Source: a virus (lineage: Duplodnaviria; Heunggongvirae; Uroviricota; Caudoviricetes). Taken from it: DNA of 64,000 bases. The notes beneath the pieces were generated by a model. It made no database searches and was not told the DNA's origin. It saw only the letters and a list, made by a program, of their open reading frames with translations. The stretch lies in IMG/VR virus record IMGVR_UViG_3300012956_000001, positions 153,730-217,729 of that record. One strand, given 5' to 3'. Below are positions 1,306 through 57,169 of this stretch, in pieces (positions within the stretch are counted from its first letter, which is position 1; each line of letters begins with the position of its first letter). The position numbers were made by a program, and so were the translations under genes.

Positions 1306-4232
1306 TGTTTGACGAATCTCAGTTTGATAGGATGACAAAAAAAGCTGAAAAGTTTGAGAAGATACTACAACGATCTAAATCTTTGGGTATGTTGAGTGGT
1401 ATTGAAAAAAGTATTAAGTCTCTGTCTGGGGCAAATGAACAGACTAGAGCTTTGTTGGATCGTATCACCAAACTTGAAAAAATAACAAATCAAATTGCTC
1501 GAAGTGATGCGGGTATCACTAAGCGTATGTATGATCGTGTAAAATTCTATGATAAACAAAATGAGTTAATTAATAAGACTGTCGCTGAAATCAATAAACA
1601 GAGAGATGCAAACAGTGCTGCTTCGACTGAGGCTATATCCCAAACTGCATTAGAAATTTCAAAAATTGAACGTCAAATTGCAACACGACAAAAGTTTCAA
1701 AATAATCTAGCAGCCGAATATGAACTACGACGAGACGTTGCGGGATTTGACGATGCTGGTGTTATCGATGTTGCAGAACAGTATGGTGCGTCATTAAAAA
1801 AGCAACTTGAACTAAAGAACAAACTAGCATCGTTAGAACAAGTTAAAACACGTTTACAAGATGCTAGTGATGCAAAAGAAACCGAACTGAATAATAAGCT
1901 AAAAACTCAAAGTAAAATAAGAGAAGAAATCCTTGCACTAAAGGAGGCAGATAAACTCGTTCTTGCTGCGGAAAGAAAACAAGCTGCTAAGAACTTCTTA
2001 ACTAAGGAATTTGGCGGTGGTATTGTTGGTCAGGTCAAAGAATTAGGCAGCGCATTAAAGGCAATGGGCGCCGGCTTTGCTATTTTTGCTCTTATTGCAC
2101 TGGCCCTAAAGGCTATCCTTGGTTCTTACGTCAATGCACTGAAAGAAACTATTGACCAAGGATTGGACGCGTCTCAACGATTCTCTCAAATACAAAACAG
2201 TAGAGATGTTGTTGGAATGGGCGCTGCTCAGTGGGCACTTCTTGATCTAGCAGAAGTACAAAAGCAAACTGGTGCATTGAGTGATAAATTTGGTACCCTA
2301 GAAATACCAAGTGATTTGATTCTTCGTGCATCGTTGCTCAATAGACAACTTGGTTTGTCTGCTGATGAAACATCAACTATCCTTGAATACTTTGTTCGTA
2401 TTCGAGGCGAATCGGCTGCTGCCGCATCTAGTTCTGCACTAGTATTGAAGGCTACCGCGTTGGCAAACAATGCCAACCCAGCTCGAGTTATGCGTGACGT
2501 TGCTGCTAATGCAGCCAACTTTGCTAAGTCTGGTAAGGCTAGTGCTGATGAAATGGGTCGTGCTGCAATCCTCGTCCGTCGATTGGGTACGGAACTATCA
2601 ACCATTAGTGGTATTGCAGATCGTATCGTCACCGACTTTGAAGGTACATTAGAAGCACAAGCATCCATTGCTACGTTTGCACCAGGCATTGACATGACTG
2701 GATTGATGATTGCTTCACAATTTGGTACCGATGAAGATATTGCAACACAATTGAAGGCTACTGTAGATTCTATGGGCATGAATTTTGATAAGATGCCGCG
2801 TAGTTTTAAGTTGGCTATTTCCAGTGGTCTTGGTATCTCTGTACAAGAGCTCGCCAATATTGCTAACGCTACAAATGAAGCTATGAAAGTTACATCGCCG
2901 GGTGAGGATGCAATGATCAAAGCAAACAACAGTGCATTAAATGAATTGCAACAGGCCGTAGCAAATCCATTGGATTCTATTTCACGGGCAGTTATGGGCA
3001 TCTTCTCGTTCTTGACGACTCGTTGGGGCAGAAACGCCGAAGAAAAAGTCAAGGGTATGAACGACCAAGACTTGGCCAAGGCGGCTGGTAGCGGCTACTT
3101 CGTCGGCCGTGCCGGTGTTAAAGAAATGGATCGCCGTTCACTTGAACGTCAAATTCAAGATCTTTCACAGATAACACCGAAGACAAAAGAACAAAAGGCT
3201 CAGATTGACAAAACAATAGCGGATGCTCAGAAACAACTTGACTCAATGAGCGGCGAATCTCGTGCAGTTGGCGGAGTAGTTGGTAAAGACTCAGCACCAT
3301 CTGTATCATTGATGTCTATATTCAAAAACCTAAAGTCGAATGAAGTACCTACCATTCTACATCGCGGCGAAGCAGTACTGAACAAGGCACAAATGGGCAT
3401 CTTGTCTCAGATGACTTCCATCCAATCGAAGTTGAGTACATCACTAACAGGATTTATTGGATCGCTTGGAAAGACCATGACTAGCAAGGGCGGTATTCTT
3501 GACAAAGTTGGTGGTATATTCAACAGCGCTAAATCAGCTGGTGGCATTTTTGGTAAGATTGGTGGTCTCCTCGGTGCTTCAAAGCCAGCTGGAATTCTAA
3601 GTGGTGTTCTGGGTGGTACTGGCGGCGGCCTTCTTAAGAGCATCACCGGCGCATTGTCGGGTGGAGGCCTTGGTGGCATCGCTAAGAGTGTTGGTAGTTC
3701 ACTCGGCCTCGGCAAGATTGGCGCAATAGCTGGATCGGTTGTTCCTGGCCTTGGTACACTATTAGGTGGTGGATTGGGATCGGTTCTCGGTTCACTAGCA
3801 ACATCAGGCATTGGCAAGGCAGTCACCGGACTCATCGGTAAGGTGCCAGGTGTAGGCAGTGTTGTAAAGGGCGTAGGCAGTGTCGTTGGTAAGGTTGGTG
3901 GATTTATCGGTGGCTTGTTTGGCAAAAAGAAAAAGAAGCCAGTACCAGTGCAACCAGATATATCGCAAATGGCCGGTGATGCAGGTATTCTTAACCTGTT
4001 AACGTCTCTGGGCATTCCGGGCCTACAACAAGGTTTTTCCATTGGATCGCCAATCATGGGTTCTGCTACAGGCATGAGTGCTAATGGCGGATTCAGTTCA
4101 GCAAGTACACTAGGTATAGAACAGAAGTTGGATACGCTTATCAATCTACTACGTAGTGGTGCCATCGCGGTCAATATGGATGGTAAAAAAGTCTCTAGCT
4201 CGTTAATCGACGCTAATCGGTATGGAACATGA
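1287..4232 (+). CDS. tail tape measure / tail length determinator protein (true start may be ATG 1305)
   Basis: 981 aa; long N-terminal coiled-coil-like region rich in K/E/Q/L, internal hydrophobic segment FAIFALIALALKAILG, C-terminal Gly-rich repeats (GGIFGKIGGLLG...). Confidence 0.7.
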   Translation: MEETSLMFDESQFDRMTKKAEKFEKILQRSKSLGMLSGIEKSIKSLSGANEQTRALLDRITKLEKITNQIARSDAGITKRMYDRVKFYDKQNELINKTVAEINKQRDANSAASTEAISQTALEISKIERQIATRQKFQNNLAAEYELRRDVAGFDDAGVIDVAEQYGASLKKQLELKNKLASLEQVKTRLQDASDAKETELNNKLKTQSKIREEILALKEADKLVLAAERKQAAKNFLTKEFGGGIVGQVKELGSALKAMGAGFAIFALIALALKAILGSYVNALKETIDQGLDASQRFSQIQNSRDVVGMGAAQWALLDLAEVQKQTGALSDKFGTLEIPSDLILRASLLNRQLGLSADETSTILEYFVRIRGESAAAASSSALVLKATALANNANPARVMRDVAANAANFAKSGKASADEMGRAAILVRRLGTELSTISGIADRIVTDFEGTLEAQASIATFAPGIDMTGLMIASQFGTDEDIATQLKATVDSMGMNFDKMPRSFKLAISSGLGISVQELANIANATNEAMKVTSPGEDAMIKANNSALNELQQAVANPLDSISRAVMGIFSFLTTRWGRNAEEKVKGMNDQDLAKAAGSGYFVGRAGVKEMDRRSLERQIQDLSQITPKTKEQKAQIDKTIADAQKQLDSMSGESRAVGGVVGKDSAPSVSLMSIFKNLKSNEVPTILHRGEAVLNKAQMGILSQMTSIQSKLSTSLTGFIGSLGKTMTSKGGILDKVGGIFNSAKSAGGIFGKIGGLLGASKPAGILSGVLGGTGGGLLKSITGALSGGGLGGIAKSVGSSLGLGKIGAIAGSVVPGLGTLLGGGLGSVLGSLATSGIGKAVTGLIGKVPGVGSVVKGVGSVVGKVGGFIGGLFGKKKKKPVPVQPDISQMAGDAGILNLLTSLGIPGLQQGFSIGSPIMGSATGMSANGGFSSASTLGIEQKLDTLINLLRSGAIAVNMDGKKVSSSLIDANRYGT

Positions 4233-12500: not shown

Positions 12501-12914
12501 ATGAGCATAAATACTCAGTTACTTTGCACGTTTTGTACGGTTGAAACGCTGGAAGACACCCTCTCTAACATTGTTGCTAGTTACGACGTTGTATTCGATA
12601 CCATTTACGTACTTGAAAACGTAGATAGTCCTGAATCTCTCTGTTGTACGTATAATGTAGACACCGCCGTACCCCATCGCGGTGAAGTACCACCGGCCAC
12701 AATTTCCCTTCATCGTAAAAAGGCAACAAACACGTTATACACTATTAATGCACTTAACTTATTAATTGCTGATCTAAATAATGGTAACGTAGATAAAGGC
12801 TTTAAGGTGCCATGGGAAGATTATCGAAATACGATTTTGGTCACAGCATATAACAAGCTTAAAAAGATTACTACCAAGTTAAACGAGATTGTTAAAGTTC
12901 AAGATATCGCTTGA
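12501..12914 (+). CDS. hypothetical protein
   Basis: 137-aa ORF preceded by GGAG RBS. Confidence 0.4.
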   Translation: MSINTQLLCTFCTVETLEDTLSNIVASYDVVFDTIYVLENVDSPESLCCTYNVDTAVPHRGEVPPATISLHRKKATNTLYTINALNLLIADLNNGNVDKGFKVPWEDYRNTILVTAYNKLKKITTKLNEIVKVQDIA

Positions 12915-12938
12915 CAAACGCAGTAGTTTGAACTATCT

Positions 12939-12962
12939 TATGACCATGCCCGCACAGTAAAA
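12939..12962 (+). terminator. hairpin (cccgcacag-taaaat-ctgtgcggg) flanked by AGTAGTTT/AAACTACT inverted repeat
   Basis: 9-bp perfect stem seen directly; no clear U-tract. Confidence 0.35.
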
Positions 12963-13066
12963 TCTGTGCGGGAACATCGTCGAGAAACTACTTATAAGCA
13001 ATGGTTACGTTTTTAGATTCAAAACGATTTATCATTTACTAATTAAAAATCATTAGGAGTAATTTT

Positions 13067-23033: not shown

Positions 23034-23654
23034 ATGAAATATTCTATGTTACAAATTGCAAGCAATAGTAAGTATATTAATTTTGTTAAGCTAAATGAAT
23101 GTTTTGGTCATTGGCGTATATTAGATATTACCGCACATGTGACAAAAAATAAAAGACAAAGCGGCATTTATTTTTTATGCAAATGTAATATATGCCAAAT
23201 AAAAACTCAGTTTGTTAACATACATCAATTAAAAAAACATAAGTCTTTTAATTCTGGTGGGTGTATTTCTTGTTCTAGGAAGCGTAATACGCCGTCGGGA
23301 AATGAAAGTATATTATGGAAGGGTTACGAAGAAATACCGATGTCGTATATACACAACATACGAAATTCTGCAATTAGAAGAAATTTGAAATGGGATGTAG
23401 ATTTGCCTTATTTGTGGAATTTATTTCTACACCAAAATAGAATGTGTAAAATTTCTGGTGTGTCATTGAATTTTTCATCTTCTATAAATTTACGAGATGG
23501 AACAGCATCATTAGATCGTATTGATAGATCTATAGGATATATTCGTGGTAATTTACAATGGGTACACAAAATTGTAAATGAAATGAAGTGGGACATGACG
23601 GATGTTGAATTAATCAATTGGTGTAATACTATATCACATTATAATGGTAAATAA
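23034..23654 (+). CDS. freestanding HNH homing endonuclease, markedly AT-rich
   Basis: N-terminal FGHW..C.C..C zinc module; C-terminal SLDRIDRSIGYIRGNLQWV HNH core; local AT-rich composition and flanking palindrome AGTTATAcagTATAACT at 22997-23016. Confidence 0.7.
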   Translation: MKYSMLQIASNSKYINFVKLNECFGHWRILDITAHVTKNKRQSGIYFLCKCNICQIKTQFVNIHQLKKHKSFNSGGCISCSRKRNTPSGNESILWKGYEEIPMSYIHNIRNSAIRRNLKWDVDLPYLWNLFLHQNRMCKISGVSLNFSSSINLRDGTASLDRIDRSIGYIRGNLQWVHKIVNEMKWDMTDVELINWCNTISHYNGK

Positions 23655-26225: not shown

Positions 26226-26312
26226 TTGTATAGATTGTATACAACCTAGTATATCTTGAAATTGGTATACTAATTGAGTATCTTTATACAATGACCCGAA
26301 CCAGAGGATATA

Positions 26313-28517: not shown

Positions 28518-28562
28518 GTTATACACTTGACTTTTGAATGGTTATGAGTTAGATTTACTACG

Positions 28563-28612
28563 TATAGATGAACAACGAAAGATGTTTTCGGACAAGTAGT
28601 TGTTCATCTATA
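28563..28612 (+). repeat. 14-bp perfect inverted repeat TATAGATGAACAAC / GTTGTTCATCTATA with 22-nt loop
   Basis: seen directly; lies between hypothetical gene and NAD-salvage genes. Confidence 0.6.
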
Positions 28613-31339: not shown

Positions 31340-32014
31340 GTGTTGCAATTTCTTAAAGAATATCAACTAACTGAATCGTTTATTGTTGATGCAAGCAACG
31401 CGGCCTCGTGGCCATTAGATGTACTTAAACCTCTAGTAAGAACACATGAATCATTTGTGGCTGGTGGATACTTCAAAGATTTATTCAGTTCACCGCCCAA
31501 AGATCCTCGTGATATTGATGTGTATTTTTACAATCAAGAATCATTTGATCTAATGTATGATAAATTTAATGCGTCACCGGTATACAAAAAGAAGCACCGC
31601 GGTACAAATGCAATCGCATATGAACATATACCAACTGGACATAGTATTGATTTGGTAACTTCAATTTTTGGCAAGCCACAGGAAGTATTGCGGTCGTTTG
31701 ATTTTACTATAACTAAATGTGCATTAGTACAAAAATTTGGTGAATTTCATCTACTGATGCATGATCAGTTTATGGATCATGTCAACAACAAAGTTCTAAC
31801 TACAGATGCGTATATAGATGTAGGTGTGGATCTGACCTTTGAAGATTTAAATATTACCGCAGTAAAAGACATTGATTGTAATAAACTGTTCAATCGAATG
31901 ATAAAGTATACCTTGTATGGGTATAAGCCATCACACGAATTGAAGACACAACTATTTAGATCAATTAAAGTACAAAAGATCGACACAATTACACCAGTAA
32001 TTACAGAATATTGA
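31340..32014 (+). CDS. pol-beta-superfamily nucleotidyltransferase-like protein
   Basis: VAGGYFKDLFSSPPKDPRDIDVYF fits hG[GS]-x(9-13)-DhDh minimal nucleotidyltransferase motif; GTG start after GGGGGG. Confidence 0.4.
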   Translation: MLQFLKEYQLTESFIVDASNAASWPLDVLKPLVRTHESFVAGGYFKDLFSSPPKDPRDIDVYFYNQESFDLMYDKFNASPVYKKKHRGTNAIAYEHIPTGHSIDLVTSIFGKPQEVLRSFDFTITKCALVQKFGEFHLLMHDQFMDHVNNKVLTTDAYIDVGVDLTFEDLNITAVKDIDCNKLFNRMIKYTLYGYKPSHELKTQLFRSIKVQKIDTITPVITEY

Positions 32015-32809: not shown

Positions 32810-33982
32810 ATGAGTTTAGATCAGTTTTTTGATACACCACAATTTGATGTAGAGGCCGAGAAGGTTCGGTTTATCGAACACCTAGATCGCCTAAAAGCGA
32901 TGGATGTTCGTGAACAAACTCTATATCAGAAATGGTATGAATTGTCCACCGAATACAAGTGGGCATCAAACAAAGCATCCATCTTGAAGGCCAATATCTG
33001 GCGACCCACGAATATACAGGATCGTGACGGAACCATTGCCGAATTGAAGGCCCTTCGTCCTAGGCTGCGTTTTATCGAAAAGACTGATAAGAAGGGTATT
33101 GAGGATTGGCTCATTTATCGTGTATTGATGAGTACGTTTAACTTCGACCAAAATCCGGGCCGATTCCTCAGATTTCTCGTTGAAGATGAAGTAACGGACA
33201 AGGTGCTTGGTATTACGTCACTGGGCTCTGATGTCATTAACATTGGATGCCGTGACCGATATATTGGTTGGAATGAAACCGACAAGTTGGCGGGCATGTT
33301 GAATCACACTGCCATTGGCACAACCATTGTCGCAACTCAGCCATTCGGTTACAACTTCCTTGGTGGTAAGCTTATCGCTGCCTTACTTGTGACGCCTACC
33401 ATTCGAGACATTTGGAAGCGTGAATACGGCGAGACATTGGTGGGCATTACTACCACTTCGTTGTATGGCGACGGATCAATGTATAACAGCATTCCGTGGT
33501 GGAAGTCATTGGGTGAAACCACTGGTAAGATTCCATTGAAGCCCACGGATGAATACTACATGCCATGGCACGAGATCATCAAAACCAAATATCCAGAACA
33601 ATATGATAAGTTGTTGTGGAACGCTGTTGGTGGTCCGTCCACTGGCGTTAAACAGAAAATCATTAACGTGATTTTCAAAGAAGTGGGCGTCAAGCCATCA
33701 CAGTATGTACACGGTTTCAATCGTGGTGTCTACTTTGCTTCGTTGTACGAAAACACCAAAGAGTTTCTCCGTAAGGAAATCACCGATGCTGAATTGATAC
33801 CAATCAAGCGATCAACGTCGATGGACGCCGTTATGGAGTGGTGGACAAAGAAAGCCATTTCACGATACGAGAAGTTACATGCCGAAGATAGACTAAAGCC
33901 CGAAGTGTTGTTCTATAATGATGTAATGTTCCAAACATGGGACGAAACAAAAACCAAATATCTTGGTGAGGTTGGCCGATAA
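32810..33982 (+). CDS. hypothetical 390-aa protein inserted between clamp and clamp-loader genes
   Basis: no motif recognised; TAAATG overlap with clamp gene. Confidence 0.45.
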   Translation: MSLDQFFDTPQFDVEAEKVRFIEHLDRLKAMDVREQTLYQKWYELSTEYKWASNKASILKANIWRPTNIQDRDGTIAELKALRPRLRFIEKTDKKGIEDWLIYRVLMSTFNFDQNPGRFLRFLVEDEVTDKVLGITSLGSDVINIGCRDRYIGWNETDKLAGMLNHTAIGTTIVATQPFGYNFLGGKLIAALLVTPTIRDIWKREYGETLVGITTTSLYGDGSMYNSIPWWKSLGETTGKIPLKPTDEYYMPWHEIIKTKYPEQYDKLLWNAVGGPSTGVKQKIINVIFKEVGVKPSQYVHGFNRGVYFASLYENTKEFLRKEITDAELIPIKRSTSMDAVMEWWTKKAISRYEKLHAEDRLKPEVLFYNDVMFQTWDETKTKYLGEVGR

Positions 33983-50927: not shown

Positions 50928-51771
50928 GCAAACTCCACTATTCTTTTTTGACACAGCAGATCTAGATGTAATCCAAAACGTATGGGATAGATTGGGACCA
51001 TACGTTCCAGACGAAGCAATGGCCGGCATCACCACCAATCCAAGTGCATTGGCAAAGGTCAACTGTGATGATCTTGACAAGTTTGAAACACTTACATACA
51101 AGTTGGCTCGATTTGTAAGCAGCGTACGCAAGAATGATATCAATTTTGAAACTGGTACGGTACACGTTCAATTGCCAAGTTCCACGGCAACAGAAGCTGA
51201 GTTGGTGGCATGGACCAACTACGTTAAGGATCTCGGCGACGGCCGGTGTCATATTGCTATGAAAATTCCACCGTACAAGCATATTCTGGACATTGTAAGT
51301 GCACGTAGCCTAGAAGAAAAGGTACAGATCAATGTCACTGGTACCTCAGACGCGGCCACGGCCCTACGGTGTTTCAGCTATCCACAGGTTTCGTATGTAA
51401 GCATCATTCCAGGCAGAATGGAAGAAGTGGGCATTGATGCAACCAAGCACCTAAATTTGGTACATCAACGTTACAAGGCCTTCGCCGGTGAACAGTATGT
51501 AATTGCTGGTTCCATGCGAACGGTTGATGGATTAAAGCGATCCATTGCTGCTGGTTGTGTACCAACCATTGGTCAACGTGTGTGGGATGCTATGACCGAT
51601 CAAGACTATAAAGAATTTGCATCGTGGTGGTCCACCATCACACCGACCAGTTCGTACATTGATGATATTCCTCAGATTGATCAAACTAACATTGATCTAA
51701 CAGATGCTTTCTTCAAGCAAATGGACGAGTTGGGCCAGCCACTCTACAAGGCATTTGCCGCAACAGTATGA
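50914..51771 (+). CDS. transaldolase / fructose-6-phosphate aldolase family protein
   Basis: FFFDTADLDVIQ and GITTNPSAL are transaldolase-family signatures. Confidence 0.65.
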   Translation: MTTVKQTPLFFFDTADLDVIQNVWDRLGPYVPDEAMAGITTNPSALAKVNCDDLDKFETLTYKLARFVSSVRKNDINFETGTVHVQLPSSTATEAELVAWTNYVKDLGDGRCHIAMKIPPYKHILDIVSARSLEEKVQINVTGTSDAATALRCFSYPQVSYVSIIPGRMEEVGIDATKHLNLVHQRYKAFAGEQYVIAGSMRTVDGLKRSIAAGCVPTIGQRVWDAMTDQDYKEFASWWSTITPTSSYIDDIPQIDQTNIDLTDAFFKQMDELGQPLYKAFAATV

Positions 51772-52505
51772 AAATTGCTCTGTGCATGAGTGGTCATGCT
51801 AGAACCTACGCACAGACATTTGAAACGTGGCGTGATAATCTCCTGGCACACCACGATGTTGATGTATTTTTTCATGTGTGGGATACACTCGGACCAAGAA
51901 CATATGGCAGAGGAGCCCCGGGCCACTCAGGCATAGAACAAAGTGAATTACTAAATTTAGATCACTTAATTAACATATGGCATCCTACACTTGCCATCAT
52001 GGACAAGTATGTATATTTTCATCAACACTTTGATACAAAGTCTGCCAAGTGGTATCGTACCAGAGAAGCATTAGGATTACGAGACATTGATCGACCACTA
52101 GGCAATATGTCAATGTATTACAAGTGGCGTGAGTGTAACAACCTTCGACTCCGCCATGCAGAACAACATAACATCACCTACGATATGGTCATTCGGTCGA
52201 GGCCGGACATAGCATTGCGGGAACAGTTGCCAGCAGAATGTTTTCATAATAATTCGGTTACCTATATTCCTATTGCTGGGTCTTGGGCAGAAAACGAAAT
52301 TAGTGATTACATCACACTCGGCACATCCGAACAGTTAAATCACTGGTGTAGCATATACGATCAGCTGGACGAAAAGTATACTTCAGCATTAGAAAGCAAC
52401 GACTTTACAAAAGCGTTATATCCACACAAATTGTTCTACCATCACTTTGTCGATCATAACCAACCATTTAAACAGGTTCCTATTAATTGTGAGATCATTA
52501 GATGA
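51768..52505 (+). CDS. hypothetical protein, tandem paralog A
   Basis: MKIALCMSGHARTY...TF...DVFFHVWD parallels next gene. Confidence 0.4.
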   Translation: MKIALCMSGHARTYAQTFETWRDNLLAHHDVDVFFHVWDTLGPRTYGRGAPGHSGIEQSELLNLDHLINIWHPTLAIMDKYVYFHQHFDTKSAKWYRTREALGLRDIDRPLGNMSMYYKWRECNNLRLRHAEQHNITYDMVIRSRPDIALREQLPAECFHNNSVTYIPIAGSWAENEISDYITLGTSEQLNHWCSIYDQLDEKYTSALESNDFTKALYPHKLFYHHFVDHNQPFKQVPINCEIIR

Positions 52506-53224
52506 AAACTGCACTAATCCTTAGCGGACAGCCACGCTCTGTAGAAAAGACATTCCCACTTATCAAACAACACATTCTCGACATTAACCAGCCGGATGTA
52601 TTCATTCATACCTGGCGAGATGATAGATTGTGTGGCCGGTCACCTGTGTCATCCGGTGGTGTGGTGGCATCTGATCCCATTCCAGAAAACATCAACGAAA
52701 TTATCTTAAACTTGTATAATCCTGTTGCAATTAAAATTGAACGGCCGATTGAGTTTAATGAGTTCAATTTCAATGATAACAAATATCCACAGATTAAACC
52801 GAAGAATTCCCTTAGCCAGAGATATTCTGTTCGGGAGTCATTCAAGTTGTTACTAGATCACGCTGCATGGACCGACACAACTTATGATTATGTCATTCGT
52901 ATGCGGTTTGATTGGGCGATTCAAATGGACATAGATGTAACTACATTGCCAACGGACACAATCACCACACCTAACGACTGTCCACATCAAGGTGGATTGA
53001 ATGATCAATTTGCTGTGGCTCCACAACACTTAATGTTGCACTATGTTCAACTATTTGATCAAATTCCAAGATTATTTTCGTATGGTGTGCCGTTTTGTGA
53101 TGAAATTCTTCTTGGGGAACATCTACGAAGTGCCAATATTGTAGCAAATGCCATACCGATACCATATACAATTCAGCGTTCGTCAACAGGCGTTACCAAC
53201 ATTCTACATACGGATGTAATATGA
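52502..53224 (+). CDS. hypothetical protein, tandem paralog B
   Basis: MKTALILSGQPRSV...TF...DVFIHTWRD. Confidence 0.4.
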   Translation: MKTALILSGQPRSVEKTFPLIKQHILDINQPDVFIHTWRDDRLCGRSPVSSGGVVASDPIPENINEIILNLYNPVAIKIERPIEFNEFNFNDNKYPQIKPKNSLSQRYSVRESFKLLLDHAAWTDTTYDYVIRMRFDWAIQMDIDVTTLPTDTITTPNDCPHQGGLNDQFAVAPQHLMLHYVQLFDQIPRLFSYGVPFCDEILLGEHLRSANIVANAIPIPYTIQRSSTGVTNILHTDVI

Positions 53225-53952
53225 TTAAGTTGGTCGATACAAAGGACAAATACACGAATGATCAGGCGGCCAAGCAACAATTGGCTGATCTGTTTGGTGA
53301 CACCACAAAGTATACTCTAGAGTTTGATCCATTTTGGAATGAGATGGTACCTCAAGCGATCAAGATGCACAATCGTCATGGTATGGGTGAATATGCCGGA
53401 TCGGGCTGTGTGGACTATAACGAGGCTAAGGCACTATACATTTTTACTCGGCTATTGCGTCCAAAGATTGTTGTAGAACTCGGGTATGCGGGAGGCATAT
53501 CCACCAGTTTTATTGCACGTGGATTAGAAATGAATGGTGCCGGCCAAGTTCACACCGTTGATCTATCGCCAGAATACTGGGATGTATGTCCCACGTTTCA
53601 ACAGTATCGTAAACAAGAAACGATTGTACAGTATCATGCTACTGATGCTATTCAATTCTTGAAAGACACCGACGTAGCCCCGATCCTAACGTTTAGTGAT
53701 GCCACTCACGAAGAAGAACCCACTCGACAAATTGCTGAATTACTAAAAAAGAAGTGGCCTCATGCCGTACACTTATATCACGAATGGGGTATGAGTAATA
53801 AAAGTGCTGCAGAAGAACGATCCTATGTCAGCATGCAAAATTTAATTGGTACACAATATGAACGTGATGCCTTTGAGAGTGTATTTGGCGATCAATATAG
53901 ACACGGTGGATTGTATGGGTCGTGTGGCCTTGGAATTGTGATGCCTCTATGA
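53221..53952 (+). CDS. class I SAM-dependent methyltransferase (Methyltransf_24/TylF-CmcI-like)
   Basis: IVVELGYAGGIST glycine-rich SAM loop, acidic residue downstream (HTVDLS). Confidence 0.55.
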   Translation: MIKLVDTKDKYTNDQAAKQQLADLFGDTTKYTLEFDPFWNEMVPQAIKMHNRHGMGEYAGSGCVDYNEAKALYIFTRLLRPKIVVELGYAGGISTSFIARGLEMNGAGQVHTVDLSPEYWDVCPTFQQYRKQETIVQYHATDAIQFLKDTDVAPILTFSDATHEEEPTRQIAELLKKKWPHAVHLYHEWGMSNKSAAEERSYVSMQNLIGTQYERDAFESVFGDQYRHGGLYGSCGLGIVMPL

Positions 53953-54314
53953 TAATAACAAGCATTGATCCGACCGAGATAAAATCATACGCAAAGTCGT
54001 ATATAAGTGAGGTGGCGGCCACGTATTTTGAAATTCGAAAGTCGTGGGGCCCTGGCTGGAAAGTGTTCGAATCGCCCGAGGACATAGAACGTATCATATA
54101 TTATCTTATAGATAGATGTTGTGAAACACCGACTGGCAATACCATTGACACTACCGGCATAAAAGTACGTGTCCAACGAGCAATATTTACAGAAGACGCC
54201 CGTGTACACTATGACTCGAAATATCCAAAACATAGTCGTGCAGCAAACGGTAAGGGACTACAAGATTATACCAGTTTGGATATAACCTTCATTCTATCGG
54301 ATCGTACTAAGTAA
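53949..54314 (+). CDS. hypothetical protein
   Basis: ATGA overlap at 53949. Confidence 0.3.
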   Translation: MIITSIDPTEIKSYAKSYISEVAATYFEIRKSWGPGWKVFESPEDIERIIYYLIDRCCETPTGNTIDTTGIKVRVQRAIFTEDARVHYDSKYPKHSRAANGKGLQDYTSLDITFILSDRTK

Positions 54315-54354
54315 AATGTATACATCTTAACACATCTAGATTTTGTACCTCAAT

Positions 54355-54403
54355 CCGGTTAGATTTATCACGTTCCTTGTAGGACGTTTCCAAATCTAAC
54401 CGG
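54355..54403 (+). repeat. 12-bp perfect inverted repeat CCGGTTAGATTT / AAATCTAACCGG with 25-nt spacer
   Basis: seen directly upstream of SPFH lipoprotein gene. Confidence 0.55.
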
Positions 54404-54415
54404 AGTTTTTATACA

Positions 54416-55249
54416 ATGAAGTTCACACGATTTGTTCCTCTTATTGCTCTTTTGACCCTCGCGGCCTGTGAGCGGGTCGATCAGACCGAATATTGTGTAA
54501 AGACACAATACGGCAACGTCACCGATAAGGGCTTGGAGCCCGGATTGACCAATACGGCGTCTCCCGGTGTCTCGCTGACCTGTTTCTCCCTAACGGATCA
54601 AAACTTCCCTGAGAAGACGAGCGATGAAGATCCGGGCACATTGACCCTCGAAGTCCAGACGGGCGGCGGCGAACAGCCACTAACCATTGCGGTCGAAGTC
54701 AGCGCAGTATATGCATTTGATCGTGCCTCGGTCTATGATGTATTCGTTGCCAAGCGTACCGAAGATGCTGCTGAAGTAGAAGTCTTTAACAGCATTCAGG
54801 AAGGTACTCGTGCGGCCTTCGGATCGTGGACGGTTACGGAAATCTTCTCCGATCAGCGTGCCACATTGTCGGACAGCCTTCGGGCCCACATTCAACGAAA
54901 GCTTGGCAATCGTGCGATTATGAAGAACGTGTTCGTGAAGCGAATTTCCTTGCCTAAGGCCATTGAAGATGCACGAATTGCATCGGCACAACAGGCACAG
55001 ATTTTGGCGAAGGCACAACAGCAATTTGTAATTGACAGTCAGAATGCCCGTGGTGTTCTTATGAAGGCCGAGGCCGACGCCAAGGCAAACGAACTTCGTG
55101 GTCAGTCATACCAGTCAAATCCCAAGTTGCTTGACCTTGAAATCGCCAAGGCGTGGTCCGATGGATTGAAGGGTGCATGTAATGGCGCATCAACTTGTAT
55201 CATCGGTGGCCAGGCACTTGATCTCCTTCCTCTCCGAAATCGTCAATAA
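54416..55249 (+). CDS. SPFH/band-7 (stomatin-prohibitin-HflK/C-like) lipoprotein
   Basis: signal peptide with lipobox LTLAAC; Ala/Gln-rich coiled coil ...AKAQQQFVIDSQNARGVLMKAEADAKANELRGQ typical of SPFH C-terminus; GC clearly above window average. Confidence 0.7.
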   Translation: MKFTRFVPLIALLTLAACERVDQTEYCVKTQYGNVTDKGLEPGLTNTASPGVSLTCFSLTDQNFPEKTSDEDPGTLTLEVQTGGGEQPLTIAVEVSAVYAFDRASVYDVFVAKRTEDAAEVEVFNSIQEGTRAAFGSWTVTEIFSDQRATLSDSLRAHIQRKLGNRAIMKNVFVKRISLPKAIEDARIASAQQAQILAKAQQQFVIDSQNARGVLMKAEADAKANELRGQSYQSNPKLLDLEIAKAWSDGLKGACNGASTCIIGGQALDLLPLRNRQ

Positions 55250-55261
55250 TTAACGTGGAAT

Positions 55262-55284
55262 GGGGTGAGCTAATAACTCACCCC
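55262..55284 (+). terminator. hairpin GGGGTGAG-N7-CTCACCCC
   Basis: 8-bp G/C-rich stem after SPFH stop. Confidence 0.5.
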
Positions 55285-55292
55285 AACTCATA

Positions 55293-55601
55293 ATGTATAT
55301 ACTTAATGGATTTGGCGTATGGGTTGTTTTGTTGTTTGTAATATTGATGGTACTCAAGTTTGGCGGTCATGTAGTCAATGATAAAGAAAACTGGGCAGTC
55401 GGCGCAGCCGATTTGGCAGCTGAGTTTAGAGAGGCACCAATTCACACCATCGGCATTTTTGGAATTGTTAGTGTTATCGTTATTGGTGCATGGCCGATCA
55501 TTCTTACCGTAATGGCATTGGCCTTCGCGGCATTTCTCATTGGCGGGGTTCCATACATTGTATTTACCCGTACTATATCAACGCCTAAGCAGGAGAAGTA
55601 A
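55293..55601 (+). CDS. small integral membrane protein (3 predicted TM segments)
   Basis: hydrophobic stretches VWVVLLFVILMVL, IGIFGIVSVIVIGAWPIILTVMALAFAAFLIGG. Confidence 0.4.
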   Translation: MYILNGFGVWVVLLFVILMVLKFGGHVVNDKENWAVGAADLAAEFREAPIHTIGIFGIVSVIVIGAWPIILTVMALAFAAFLIGGVPYIVFTRTISTPKQEK

Positions 55602-55603
55602 TC

Positions 55604-55810
55604 ATGGTTATTTTCGCTGAACTATTTTTGTTTGCTATGGTTCTTTTTGGCGTCTTTCGGTTCTTGAAGAATGAAATTGAAATCAAGGTTCTTCGAGCAA
55701 AGAATGCCAAGCTTGAAGAGGATGTCATTGAACTTCAAAAGATTCTTCTTCAAGATGAAGTTGACGAATTTGGCAAGGCGCCAAGGGGCAAGCAAATTCT
55801 TCATGGATGA
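55604..55810 (+). CDS. single-pass membrane protein with coiled-coil tail
   Basis: MVIFAELFLFAMVLFGVF then KNEIEIKVLRAKNAKLEEDVIELQK. Confidence 0.4.
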   Translation: MVIFAELFLFAMVLFGVFRFLKNEIEIKVLRAKNAKLEEDVIELQKILLQDEVDEFGKAPRGKQILHG

Positions 55811-55813
55811 CAT

Positions 55814-56353
55814 ATGACACAACAGAACTATGATGAATTGTACGCTCAATTAACATCACACCCGACTGTAGGTGAGACAGGGCCGCCGCATGCAGAATTT
55901 CTTATGCATGCGGCGAGACAGTCAAATGCAAAAGTCATTGTTGAAATTGGGTTCAATCGAGGCAGTTCAGCTTTATCGTTACTTATGTCGAGTGATGACT
56001 GCGTGGTGTATTCGGTGGATATTCGTACACCAGAAGAAGTTCGGGCATCGTGTGATTTCTTGACTGCACAATTTCCAAATCGATTTCACTACATCCACGG
56101 TAACAGTAGAGAATTATTGTCGTTGTTGCCCATTAGTAATGCTGATCTTGTATTCATTGACGGGGATCATTCGTATGATGGTGTGCGAAATGACGTTGAA
56201 CAATCCTTACAACTAAATCCTCGATGTATCGTATTTGATGATTATTATCACGGGTCACACCGACATGATATTCAACGGGTCATTGACGAATTTCAGTTAG
56301 TTGTAGCAGAAACAAGTGATATTGGATGTGGGCAGGCGTTTGTCAATCGATAG
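55814..56353 (+). CDS. class I SAM-dependent O-methyltransferase-like protein
   Basis: VIVEIGFNRGSS glycine loop, DLVFIDGDHSYD motif. Confidence 0.6.
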   Translation: MTQQNYDELYAQLTSHPTVGETGPPHAEFLMHAARQSNAKVIVEIGFNRGSSALSLLMSSDDCVVYSVDIRTPEEVRASCDFLTAQFPNRFHYIHGNSRELLSLLPISNADLVFIDGDHSYDGVRNDVEQSLQLNPRCIVFDDYYHGSHRHDIQRVIDEFQLVVAETSDIGCGQAFVNR

Positions 56354-56422: not shown

Positions 56423-57169
56423 GTGGGACAAAAGCCAGCAGAAATAATATATGGAATATGTGAATTGTGTAGGGTCCAATTTGCATATCCAGACAAGACA
56501 ATAAATAAGAACCGAAGATTTTGTTCCGGTTTTTGTGCTAAATCACACAATGGTTTATCTAATAAAGGACGAGAGAGAACCAATGAATGGAAGTTGTGGG
56601 CAAAACAATATTTTTTAGGTGAGAATAATCCGTTCTATGGCAAGACACACACATCAGAATCAATTTCACGGATGTCACAAGCAAGTAAAGGCCGTCCATG
56701 TAAACCGGAAGTGAAACAATTTTTCTCCGATTTGTATTCCGGTGAGGGCAATCCATTTTATGGAAAGACACATTCCGAGCAGACTCTCTTAAAAATAAAA
56801 CAGCATGCTAACTCGGAGCAGGGTCGTAGAATTAGAAGAAACAACGCCATAAAGAAAAATCAATTCACACCAAATTATAGTAAAGATGCGTGTGAGTTGT
56901 TTGATGAAATCAATCGTGAACTTAGTTGGAATGGACAACATGCAGAAAACGGTGGCGAGTTTTTTATCAAAGAGTTAGGCTACTGGGTGGATTACTACGA
57001 GCCAAATCTTAATATTGTGATTGAATACGATGATAAATCGCATAACTTGAAGTCAAAGAAAGAACGAGATGCAAGAAGACAACAAGAAATTGAACAACAT
57101 CTCGGTTGTAAATTTTATAGAATCCCATTTAATAGGAAGGCAGGATGGAAAAAAATTATACAGTCCTAG
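56423..57169 (+). CDS. homing endonuclease-like protein: Zn finger + two NUMOD3 repeats + C-terminal Vsr/DUF559-like PD-(D/E)xK domain
   Basis: NNPFYGKTHTSESISRMS and GNPFYGKTHSEQTLLKIK (NUMOD3); C-term NIVIEYDDKSHN...ERDARRQQEIEQHLGCKFYRIP; GTG start after GGAGAAA. Confidence 0.6.
   Translation: MGQKPAEIIYGICELCRVQFAYPDKTINKNRRFCSGFCAKSHNGLSNKGRERTNEWKLWAKQYFLGENNPFYGKTHTSESISRMSQASKGRPCKPEVKQFFSDLYSGEGNPFYGKTHSEQTLLKIKQHANSEQGRRIRRNNAIKKNQFTPNYSKDACELFDEINRELSWNGQHAENGGEFFIKELGYWVDYYEPNLNIVIEYDDKSHNLKSKKERDARRQQEIEQHLGCKFYRIPFNRKAGWKKIIQS

Follow-up and report, generated by a model that had tools for sequence, protein, structure and literature searches.

The 64,000-nucleotide window analyzed here (positions 153,730 to 217,729 of IMG/VR record IMGVR_UViG_3300012956_000001, from a virus of the Caudoviricetes) contains, at 54355-55810, an SPFH/Band-7 lipoprotein gene followed by genes for two small membrane proteins, of 102 and 68 amino acids. 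With moderate confidence, we read the SPFH protein and the 68-residue protein, which is bitopic, as a stable, long-resident envelope module of the phage, in which the SPFH protein would form a periplasm-facing, lipid-anchored ring or cage, and which would carry its own expression signals. Nearly all open reading frames (ORFs) of the window are on the + strand and belong to a large uncultured phage, with genes for a DNA polymerase, a ribonucleotide reductase, NAMPT, a gp32-like protein and a clamp loader. The elements listed here by a first-pass annotation (SPFH gene, two small ORFs, palindrome and terminator) were all found in place, with the corrections given below, and the small membrane proteins of the locus were also located on a 217.7-kb contig.

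The assignment of the 277-residue protein to the SPFH/Band-7 lipoproteins is borne out. It matches the Pfam family Band_7 (PF01145) at residues 20-203 (E = 2.6e-12; 47.6 bits for a cutoff of 23.6), and the phrog_200 'lipoprotein' profile over nearly its full length (residues 7-275, 9e-28). Its N-terminus is MKFTRFVPLIALLTLAAC, with the lipobox LTLAAC and its cysteine at position 18 (pattern applied: [LVI][ASTVI][GAS]C). This cysteine is invariant among 27 aligned family members, the residue at +2 relative to it differs across the family (E, D, S, A, T or Y), and no hydrophobic window of transmembrane (TM) length was found in the protein. The signal peptide is followed by the SPFH domain, a coiled coil of about 75 residues (181-254) and a C-terminal Cys-x5-Cys tail. 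Besides the lipobox cysteine, C27, C56, C255 and C261 are invariant in the same 27 sequences. Since the lipoprotein is predicted to be secreted, these four cysteines, conserved as two pairs, probably form two disulfides in the periplasm.

The AlphaFold2 single-chain model of the protein is confident (predicted local distance difference test score, 87.6); in it, the SPFH domain is followed by two helices, 181-234 and 236-254, and then by the C-terminal tail. When submitted to Foldseek, it matched erlin-1/2, HflK/C, stomatin and prohibitin at E values around 1e-12, and also QmcA and flotillin. All these families form rings or cages. The predicted fold would be that of a complete SPFH protomer, with the architecture found in the ring- or cage-forming HflK/C, stomatin, prohibitin and erlin. 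At the sequence level, similarity to solved SPFH proteins is marginal (best E value, 5e-4), and a scan of NCBIfam matched no SPFH, HflK or HflC model; scans of NCBIfam and PADLOC with all three proteins of the module gave nothing relevant.

This architecture raises the possibility that the protein, in the manner of HflK/C, modulates a membrane protease of the host, for instance FtsH, its cage protecting phage proteins or redirecting host proteolysis. Several of the HflK/C, prohibitin, stomatin and erlin cages enclose or regulate proteases (PMC2636767), and the phage protein would face the periplasm, as HflK/C does. However, it has a lipid anchor in place of a TM anchor, and a single SPFH gene is present, with no K/C pair and no linked protease gene. 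Membership in HflK/HflC itself was rejected for the lipobox, the lack of an adjacent second SPFH gene and the NCBIfam result, and with similarity to solved proteins so marginal, we consider a protease-modulating role quite unlikely.

When 1.84 billion representatives were searched exhaustively with a profile of the family, just 43 clusters were returned at E <= 1e-30, below which profile scores drop to the generic SPFH level. These clusters, some 43 when defined at 50% identity, make up a small subfamily whose hallmark is five cysteines, namely that of the lipobox plus C27, C56, C255 and C261; in a minority of members, a TM anchor stands in place of the lipobox. By its alignment, the phage protein is a member of this five-cysteine subfamily, predicted to face the periplasm. 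A scan of GTDB (one genome per species) yielded 30 loci, all in Gemmatimonadota (Longimicrobiaceae and Gemmatimonadaceae), at 47 to 51% identity; as the scan relied on two peptide patterns, members in other phyla are possible. The GC content of these bacterial genes (61 to 70%) is near that of their own genomes, and their surroundings vary from locus to locus, with genes for DinB, beta-barrel proteins of the outer membrane, TonB receptors or an EamA transporter among those seen. No conserved bacterial neighborhood hinting at function was found around them.

Two small TM proteins do follow the SPFH gene, as the first-pass annotation had it, and the 68-residue one appears from its recurrence beside SPFH genes to be a conserved partner. 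It has a TM segment at 2-20, then a charged helix or coiled coil, and a conserved C-terminal ...GKxILHG. An ORF of 60 to 76 residues with an N-terminal TM segment and a coiled coil is found after the SPFH gene in every phage relative (directly after it in L001 and L006), and in Longimicrobiaceae a 64- to 75-residue ORF of the same shape, of two sequence types, abuts or overlaps the SPFH stop codon (loci L013-L015, L024-L026, L030, L032 and L038). A simple scan of the Gemmatimonadaceae loci found no such small ORF. Searched with a hidden Markov model of the phage partners, the 1255 ORFs of the bacterial loci gave Longimicrobiaceae ORFs as 14 of the top 15, each match being weak alone, and hhalign assigns a probability of 71% to the alignment of phage and bacterial partner profiles. 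In one relative, the partner has a faint match to DivIC, in keeping with an FtsB/DivIC-like shape. Searches seeded with k-mers of both small proteins returned the window's own proteins and one relative at 76% only.

This putative partner is not of the NfeD kind that had been suggested: neither small ORF matches an NfeD profile in Pfam, the soluble segments of both are too short to hold an OB-fold, and at E <= 0.01, Pfam gave nothing for them but a sub-threshold LapA_dom. A two-component spanin, defined as a small proline-rich outer-membrane lipoprotein plus an inner-membrane protein with a periplasm-spanning domain, was also discarded; here the lipoprotein is a 260-residue SPFH protein, and the bitopic protein extends only about 48 residues past its TM segment.

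The 102-residue protein has a first TM segment at 3-21, then, from about 47 to 93, a hydrophobic hairpin that contains a conserved WP, which makes three hydrophobic segments, and a basic C-terminal tail. Counterparts of 100 to 119 residues are restricted to the subclade of the window (L003, L008, L009, L010, L042, L043 and L044), where they evolve fast (24 to 65% identity); the gene is missing from L001 and L006. No match was obtained in Pfam, PHROG or PADLOC. The ORF displays the weak, non-specific attributes of a holin (small membrane protein, at least one TM segment, charged C-terminus), so that, judged on sequence, it is holin-like in shape only. If it were a holin or antiholin restrained by the SPFH cage and the bitopic protein until triggering, the module would serve in lysis timing, and its size, three hydrophobic segments and basic tail fit this proposal, as does the precedent of Kayvirus, where the genes for MbpS, an SPFH protein, and for MbpV, which is holin-like, lie between that for the endolysin and that for another lytic enzyme. 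However, no holin family of Pfam or PHROG is matched, no endolysin gene was found among the scanned neighbors, MbpV has no detectable homology to the 68-residue partner, and L001, L006 and the bacterial loci keep the SPFH-partner pair without the three-TM gene. We therefore hold this use of the three-TM protein to be unlikely.

The question of when the phage lineage obtained the SPFH gene can be addressed through its relatives. The first-pass annotation took the inverted repeat and the terminator on either side of the gene as a sign of recent acquisition from a host; such a unit would be a cassette, or 'moron'. Among 5.8 billion proteins searched, 67 homologues of the SPFH protein were retrieved; a nucleotide search of deposited phage genomes gave no match, and a scan of IMG/VR with back-translated peptides confirmed no relative. 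The genomic context was read for eight near relatives, and in addition for P0032 (about 50% identity) and the metagenomic homologue P0042. The eight contexts are all phage-like, on contigs of up to 230 kb, and the phage-like relatives' contigs carry genes for RNA and DNA ligases, a clamp, a clamp loader, NAMPT, ThyX and lysozymes. P0032 is on a phage-like contig of 242 kb, and P0042 has a cellular context. L003, L008, L009, L010, L043 and L044 share the gene order of the window around SPFH: methyltransferase, SPFH, protein of about 100 to 119 residues, protein of about 68 to 76 residues, and an epimerase further on; the gene immediately upstream of SPFH differs in L010 and L008.

All eight near relatives read have an orthologue, 72 to 77% identical to the SPFH protein of the window, and the flanking methyltransferase (70 to 81%) and epimerase (65 to 78%) have diverged to the same extent; at the nucleotide level, identity is about 66 to 75% throughout. 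In a neighbor-joining tree, the window sequence falls within a deep clade that holds all sequences of known phage context except P0032, which belongs to a second clade. The shared slot, the divergence equal to that of the flanks and a GC excess common to all relatives (see below) argue against a recent acquisition from a host, for which there is no support, and the phage SPFH sequences would rather constitute a long-resident lineage. Moreover, the 'brackets' are two unrelated local hairpins and not terminal repeats, and no flanking direct repeats, target-site duplications or terminal repeats were found around the SPFH unit. With the inverted repeat forming one local hairpin and the gene present in every related phage locus read, a mobile cassette or transposable unit was rejected as well.

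The higher GC content and different codon usage reported in the first pass are real. The GC content of the SPFH gene is 51.3%, while that of the window is 42.9% and the value expected from the amino acids of the gene and the codon usage of the phage is 46.0%, so that about 3 of the 8.5 points of excess come from the protein sequence and the remainder from codon choice. GC at third codon positions (GC3) is 0.52, compared with 0.377 expected on the same basis. Among 50 long genes of the window, it ranks first for both GC and GC3 excess, but with a z of only about 2.1 to 2.4, and it is therefore the end of a continuum rather than an extreme outlier. Genes of nearby rank are those for NAMPT (GC3 of 0.529), the gp32-like protein (0.507) and the clamp loader (0.505), and the codon deviation of the SPFH gene correlates with that of NAMPT (r = 0.78) and of the three taken as a group (0.65). 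It retains the phage-preferred codons CGT, GAA, GAT, ATT and TTG, avoids TTA, ATA, AGA and AAA, and lacks the CTG, CGC, GAG, GAC pattern typical of a high-GC genome. Since the phage-preferred codons are kept and the deviation runs parallel to that of the phage's own high-GC3 genes, we see in it an exaggeration of the phage's bias, which may track expression level, and no foreign signature. The nine related loci show the same contrast, the SPFH gene exceeding its flanks in GC by 2 to 14 points in each of them (51.6% versus 38.0% in L008).

The moron proposal can draw on the first rank of the gene in composition, on cellular homologues in high-GC Gemmatimonadota, and on surroundings that are prone to insertion. 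It has to face orthologues in each of the eight near relatives read, most of them at the position seen in the window, a deep clade proper to the phage sequences, a GC excess that all relatives share, codon preferences of the phage and not of a high-GC host, and an inverted repeat that is conserved with the gene as a local hairpin. It is thereby largely refuted, and we give it very little credence. Two observations had been named in the first pass as capable of overturning it, orthologues throughout the related phages and codon usage indistinguishable from the rest of the genome: the former was obtained in every related phage locus read, while codon usage is still distinguishable from that of the window. 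The ORFs at 23034-23654 and 31340-32014 deviate in composition much more than the SPFH gene does, but toward low GC (GC of 29.6% and 34.4%, GC3 of 0.23 and 0.27, respectively), and neither of them has a Pfam match; they are better candidates for recent acquisition.

As for the surroundings, orf130 (53922-54314; gene-called at 121 residues) and a second Methyltransf_24 gene, for a protein of 179 residues (55814-56353), are lineage-specific, with no counterpart in L001, L003, L006, L008, L009 and L010; the methyltransferase gene is present in the same slot in L042, the closest relative. Between this gene and the epimerase, whose start it overlaps, lies an ORF for a NUMOD3 homing endonuclease (56423-57169; Pfam, 1e-16), and its absence from L042, which has the same flanking genes, makes it appear a recent mobile insertion. 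With such lineage-specific neighbors, the SPFH unit seems to sit in an insertion-prone island, though it is itself conserved. In L008, an ORF with a DruA domain (3279-3908) is immediately upstream of the SPFH gene; the window encodes at 32810-33982 a protein matching the Druantia DruA domain (PF14236, 8.5e-26).

Two hairpins flank the SPFH gene, and both are, to judge from their conservation, signals that would act at the RNA level. The upstream one had been described as a perfect 12-bp palindrome; the inverted repeat is perfect indeed, but it is interrupted, with arms of 13 nucleotides and a spacer of 25. Its folding energy is -27.3 kcal/mol (z = -5.0 relative to shuffled sequences), its loop contains a 6-bp sub-stem, and its 3' arm is followed by a G and five U (54405-54410). 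The window contains only three perfect inverted repeats of at least 12 nucleotides spaced by at most 60. A Shine-Dalgarno sequence, GGAG (54402-54405), lies partly within the 3' arm and partly just beyond it, 10 nucleotides before the ATG, and a -10-like hexamer (54360-54365) lies inside the 5' arm. This hexamer would belong to a candidate promoter: at the homologous position, L003, L009, L043, L044 and L001 have TTGACA-N17-TAGATT, of which the TAGATT is within the 5' hairpin arm in the first four, and L008 and L010 have TTGACT-N17-TATCTT and TTGACT-N17-TATGTT, both without the hairpin. The hairpin itself is shared with L003, L009 and L044 (17-bp arms), and with L043 (17-bp arms with one mismatch). 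The arms were compared by eye, an automatic alignment misplacing a paired indel, and relative to these loci the window has lost one T in the 5' arm and the matching A in the 3' arm, that is, a compensated indel.

The downstream hairpin has a 9-bp GC-rich stem, between the SPFH stop codon and the next start. Across eight phage loci, 98.5% of the alignment cells are paired, six of the nine pairs have changed on both sides, and the covariation score was matched by none of 500 shuffles, with slid controls pairing at 43 to 57%. Its loop is conserved as CTAAnnA in the eight loci and CTAAnAA in seven of them, and the window has only four perfect short-loop hairpins of at least 8 bp, this one included. 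The first pass saw in it a terminator. The GC-rich hairpin stands, but the U-tract of the canonical definition is missing: the tail is AACTCATAATG, and a terminator scan of the window did not list the site, so that an intrinsic terminator was rejected; in L010, the tail reads TTTTC. A scan of the region with Rfam gave chance-level matches only, far under the gathering scores.

Elsewhere in the window, sigma-70-like promoters, each followed by a strong hairpin, are found at 28527-28612 (TTGACT-N17-TAGATT) and 12911-12972 (TTGACA-N17-TATCTT); one of the hairpins is a perfect 14-nucleotide inverted repeat with a 22-nucleotide loop, and the other has a 9-bp stem. These pairs precede the NUDIX-NAMPT genes and the gp32-like gene, both with elevated GC3, and the comparable arrangement groups the SPFH unit with them, in regulation as in codon usage. 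The palindrome TGTATACA was considered as an operator and rejected, its five copies in the window for 1.7 expected being not clearly significant, and only two of them intergenic. The intergenic copies are at 54317-54324, upstream of the SPFH promoter region, and at 26236-26243, after the DNA polymerase gene.

A model can be proposed from these elements. Sec export and lipidation would tether the SPFH protein to the membrane, facing the periplasm, where its oligomers would form a ring or cage enclosing a patch of membrane, and the 68-residue partner, joined here by the three-TM protein, would serve as anchor or clients. The subclade of the window has added the three-TM protein, together with the conserved hairpin, between the SPFH gene and that of the partner. 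Transcripts reading through from upstream would fold the first hairpin, with its U5 tail and sequestered Shine-Dalgarno sequence, and be terminated or left untranslated, while those initiated at the unit's own promoter would begin in the loop, leave the Shine-Dalgarno sequence free, and be translatable. The downstream hairpin would lower or stabilize expression, keeping the cage subunit in excess over the small proteins. As to role, our tentative guess, which may well be wrong, is that the module restrains small membrane proteins or the energized membrane during infection, and thereby contributes to envelope integrity or lysis timing.

Several points weigh against the proposal of a caged envelope module. 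Oligomerization, lipidation, location at the inner or outer membrane and binding of the partner are all things we infer. The homology of phage and bacterial partners is weak for each individual match (E of 0.02 to 4, and the hhalign probability given above), and the positive-inside rule leaves the topology of the 68-residue partner unsettled. The -35 hexamer of the window is degenerate (TAGATT, three of the six positions of TTGACA), and with this decay the promoter may be weak here. The scanned neighbors include no adjacent endolysin gene, and the amidase and lysozyme genes of L003, a syntenic relative, lie at a distance of 8 to 10 kb. The remaining GC3 excess could be a trace of an old high-GC origin, given cellular homologues at 61 to 70% GC. 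Finally, the literature has no experiment on any phage SPFH protein, and a paper of 2026 calls the reason for their presence unclear.

Superinfection exclusion is another role to be considered: an early periplasmic lipoprotein cage with its partner would block DNA entry or receptor function of later phages. The sigma-70-like promoters of the relatives suggest early expression by the host RNA polymerase, the lipobox and conserved cysteines locate the SPFH protein in the envelope, neighboring genes encode sugar- and surface-modifying enzymes, and in Vi01-like phages an SPFH gene adjoins an annotated superinfection exclusion gene. This last adjacency is, however, a matter of annotation, no similarity to known exclusion proteins and no PADLOC match were found, and the same two-gene module occurs in ordinary chromosomal contexts of Gemmatimonadota, which suggests a housekeeping membrane role. 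Exclusion is thus an improbable explanation. Among the neighbors are two tandem paralogous genes (51768-52505 and 52502-53224; phrog_13607, with weak DUF7796 matches), which sit with transaldolase, methyltransferase, glycosyltransferase, epimerase and HAD genes in a cluster resembling a sugar- or surface-modification island.

More speculatively, the five-cysteine SPFH protein and its bitopic partner might represent an unrecognized, non-NfeD class of SPFH-partner pairs, common to Gemmatimonadota and a jumbo-size phage lineage, to which the phages would have added a holin-like three-TM client, the cage timing lysis or protecting the infected envelope and the upstream hairpin restricting translation to promoter-initiated transcripts. 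We doubt that all of this holds together. The coordinates of the features are collected in Table 1.

Table 1. Position in the window of the genes and signals of the SPFH unit, and basis of each assignment
Feature	Position	Strand	Description and basis
SPFH/Band-7 lipoprotein gene	54416..55249	+	277 aa; Pfam, PHROG 200, five-cysteine alignment, AlphaFold2, Foldseek
Three-TM protein gene	55293..55601	+	102 aa; hydrophobicity; relatives of the window subclade
Bitopic partner gene (putative)	55604..55810	+	68 aa; TM segment + coiled coil; partner alignment
Promoter-like element TAGATT-N17-TAGATT	54337..54365	+	direct reading; homologous position in relatives
Upstream hairpin	54354..54410	+	arms 54354-54366 / 54392-54404; fold z = -5.0
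Intercistronic hairpin	55261..55285	+	9-bp stem, loop CTAATAA; fold z = -4.9; covariation

Many large phages have genes annotated as SPFH (T4-like, Vi01-like, RaK2-like, Kayvirus, crAss-like and Lak phages, and haloviruses), and papers on T4-like, RaK2-like, Vi01-like and other phages list the proteins with a role called unknown. The gene described here is a new, divergent member of this already noted, uncharacterized class. To the class, the locus adds a distinct extracytoplasmic subfamily, predicted to be lipid-anchored and probably disulfide-bonded, and the co-encoding of a putative bitopic partner, bacterial homologues included, makes of it a concrete two-protein system. The conserved hairpins suggest how the unit may be insulated from neighboring transcription. 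Its history also calls for some caution, in that a phage gene which is an outlier in GC or codon usage need not imply a recent transfer.

Among the closest known systems are the lipoproteins of PHROG 200 (those of the T4-like phages 44RR, Aeh1 and RB43, of RaK2-like and Vi01-like phages, and the prohibitin-like lipoprotein of haloviruses HF1 and HF2), which share the phrog_200 profile, a large phage genome, and a signal peptide or lipobox. In halovirus HF1, the SPFH gene is likewise directly followed by a small ORF with an N-terminal TM segment, of 44 residues. Unlike these proteins, that of the window belongs to the five-cysteine subfamily, and no deposited phage genome encodes a protein more than about 25% identical to it. 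In the lysis region of Kayvirus (Staphylococcus phage K-like), the MbpV-MbpS pair also associates an SPFH protein with a small protein having an N-terminal TM segment and a charged tail, and the region carries early-type host promoters. There, however, the small protein is encoded upstream, the pair lies between endolysin and transglycosylase genes, the host is Gram-positive, and the periplasmic disulfide pattern is absent; that the SPFH protein helps secretion of a lytic enzyme is offered as speculation only in the Kayvirus paper.

The SPFH lipoproteins of Gemmatimonadota align with the phage protein from end to end and have the lipobox and the four other cysteines in common with it, but the bacterial loci are chromosomal, in varied housekeeping contexts, with a high GC content, and without the three-TM gene or either phage hairpin. 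HflK/HflC, QmcA-YbbJ (NfeD), stomatin, prohibitin and erlin have the same predicted protomer architecture, and the phage protein probably faces the periplasm, as HflK/C does. It departs from these in its single gene, its predicted lipid anchor, its non-NfeD partner and its marginal sequence similarity.

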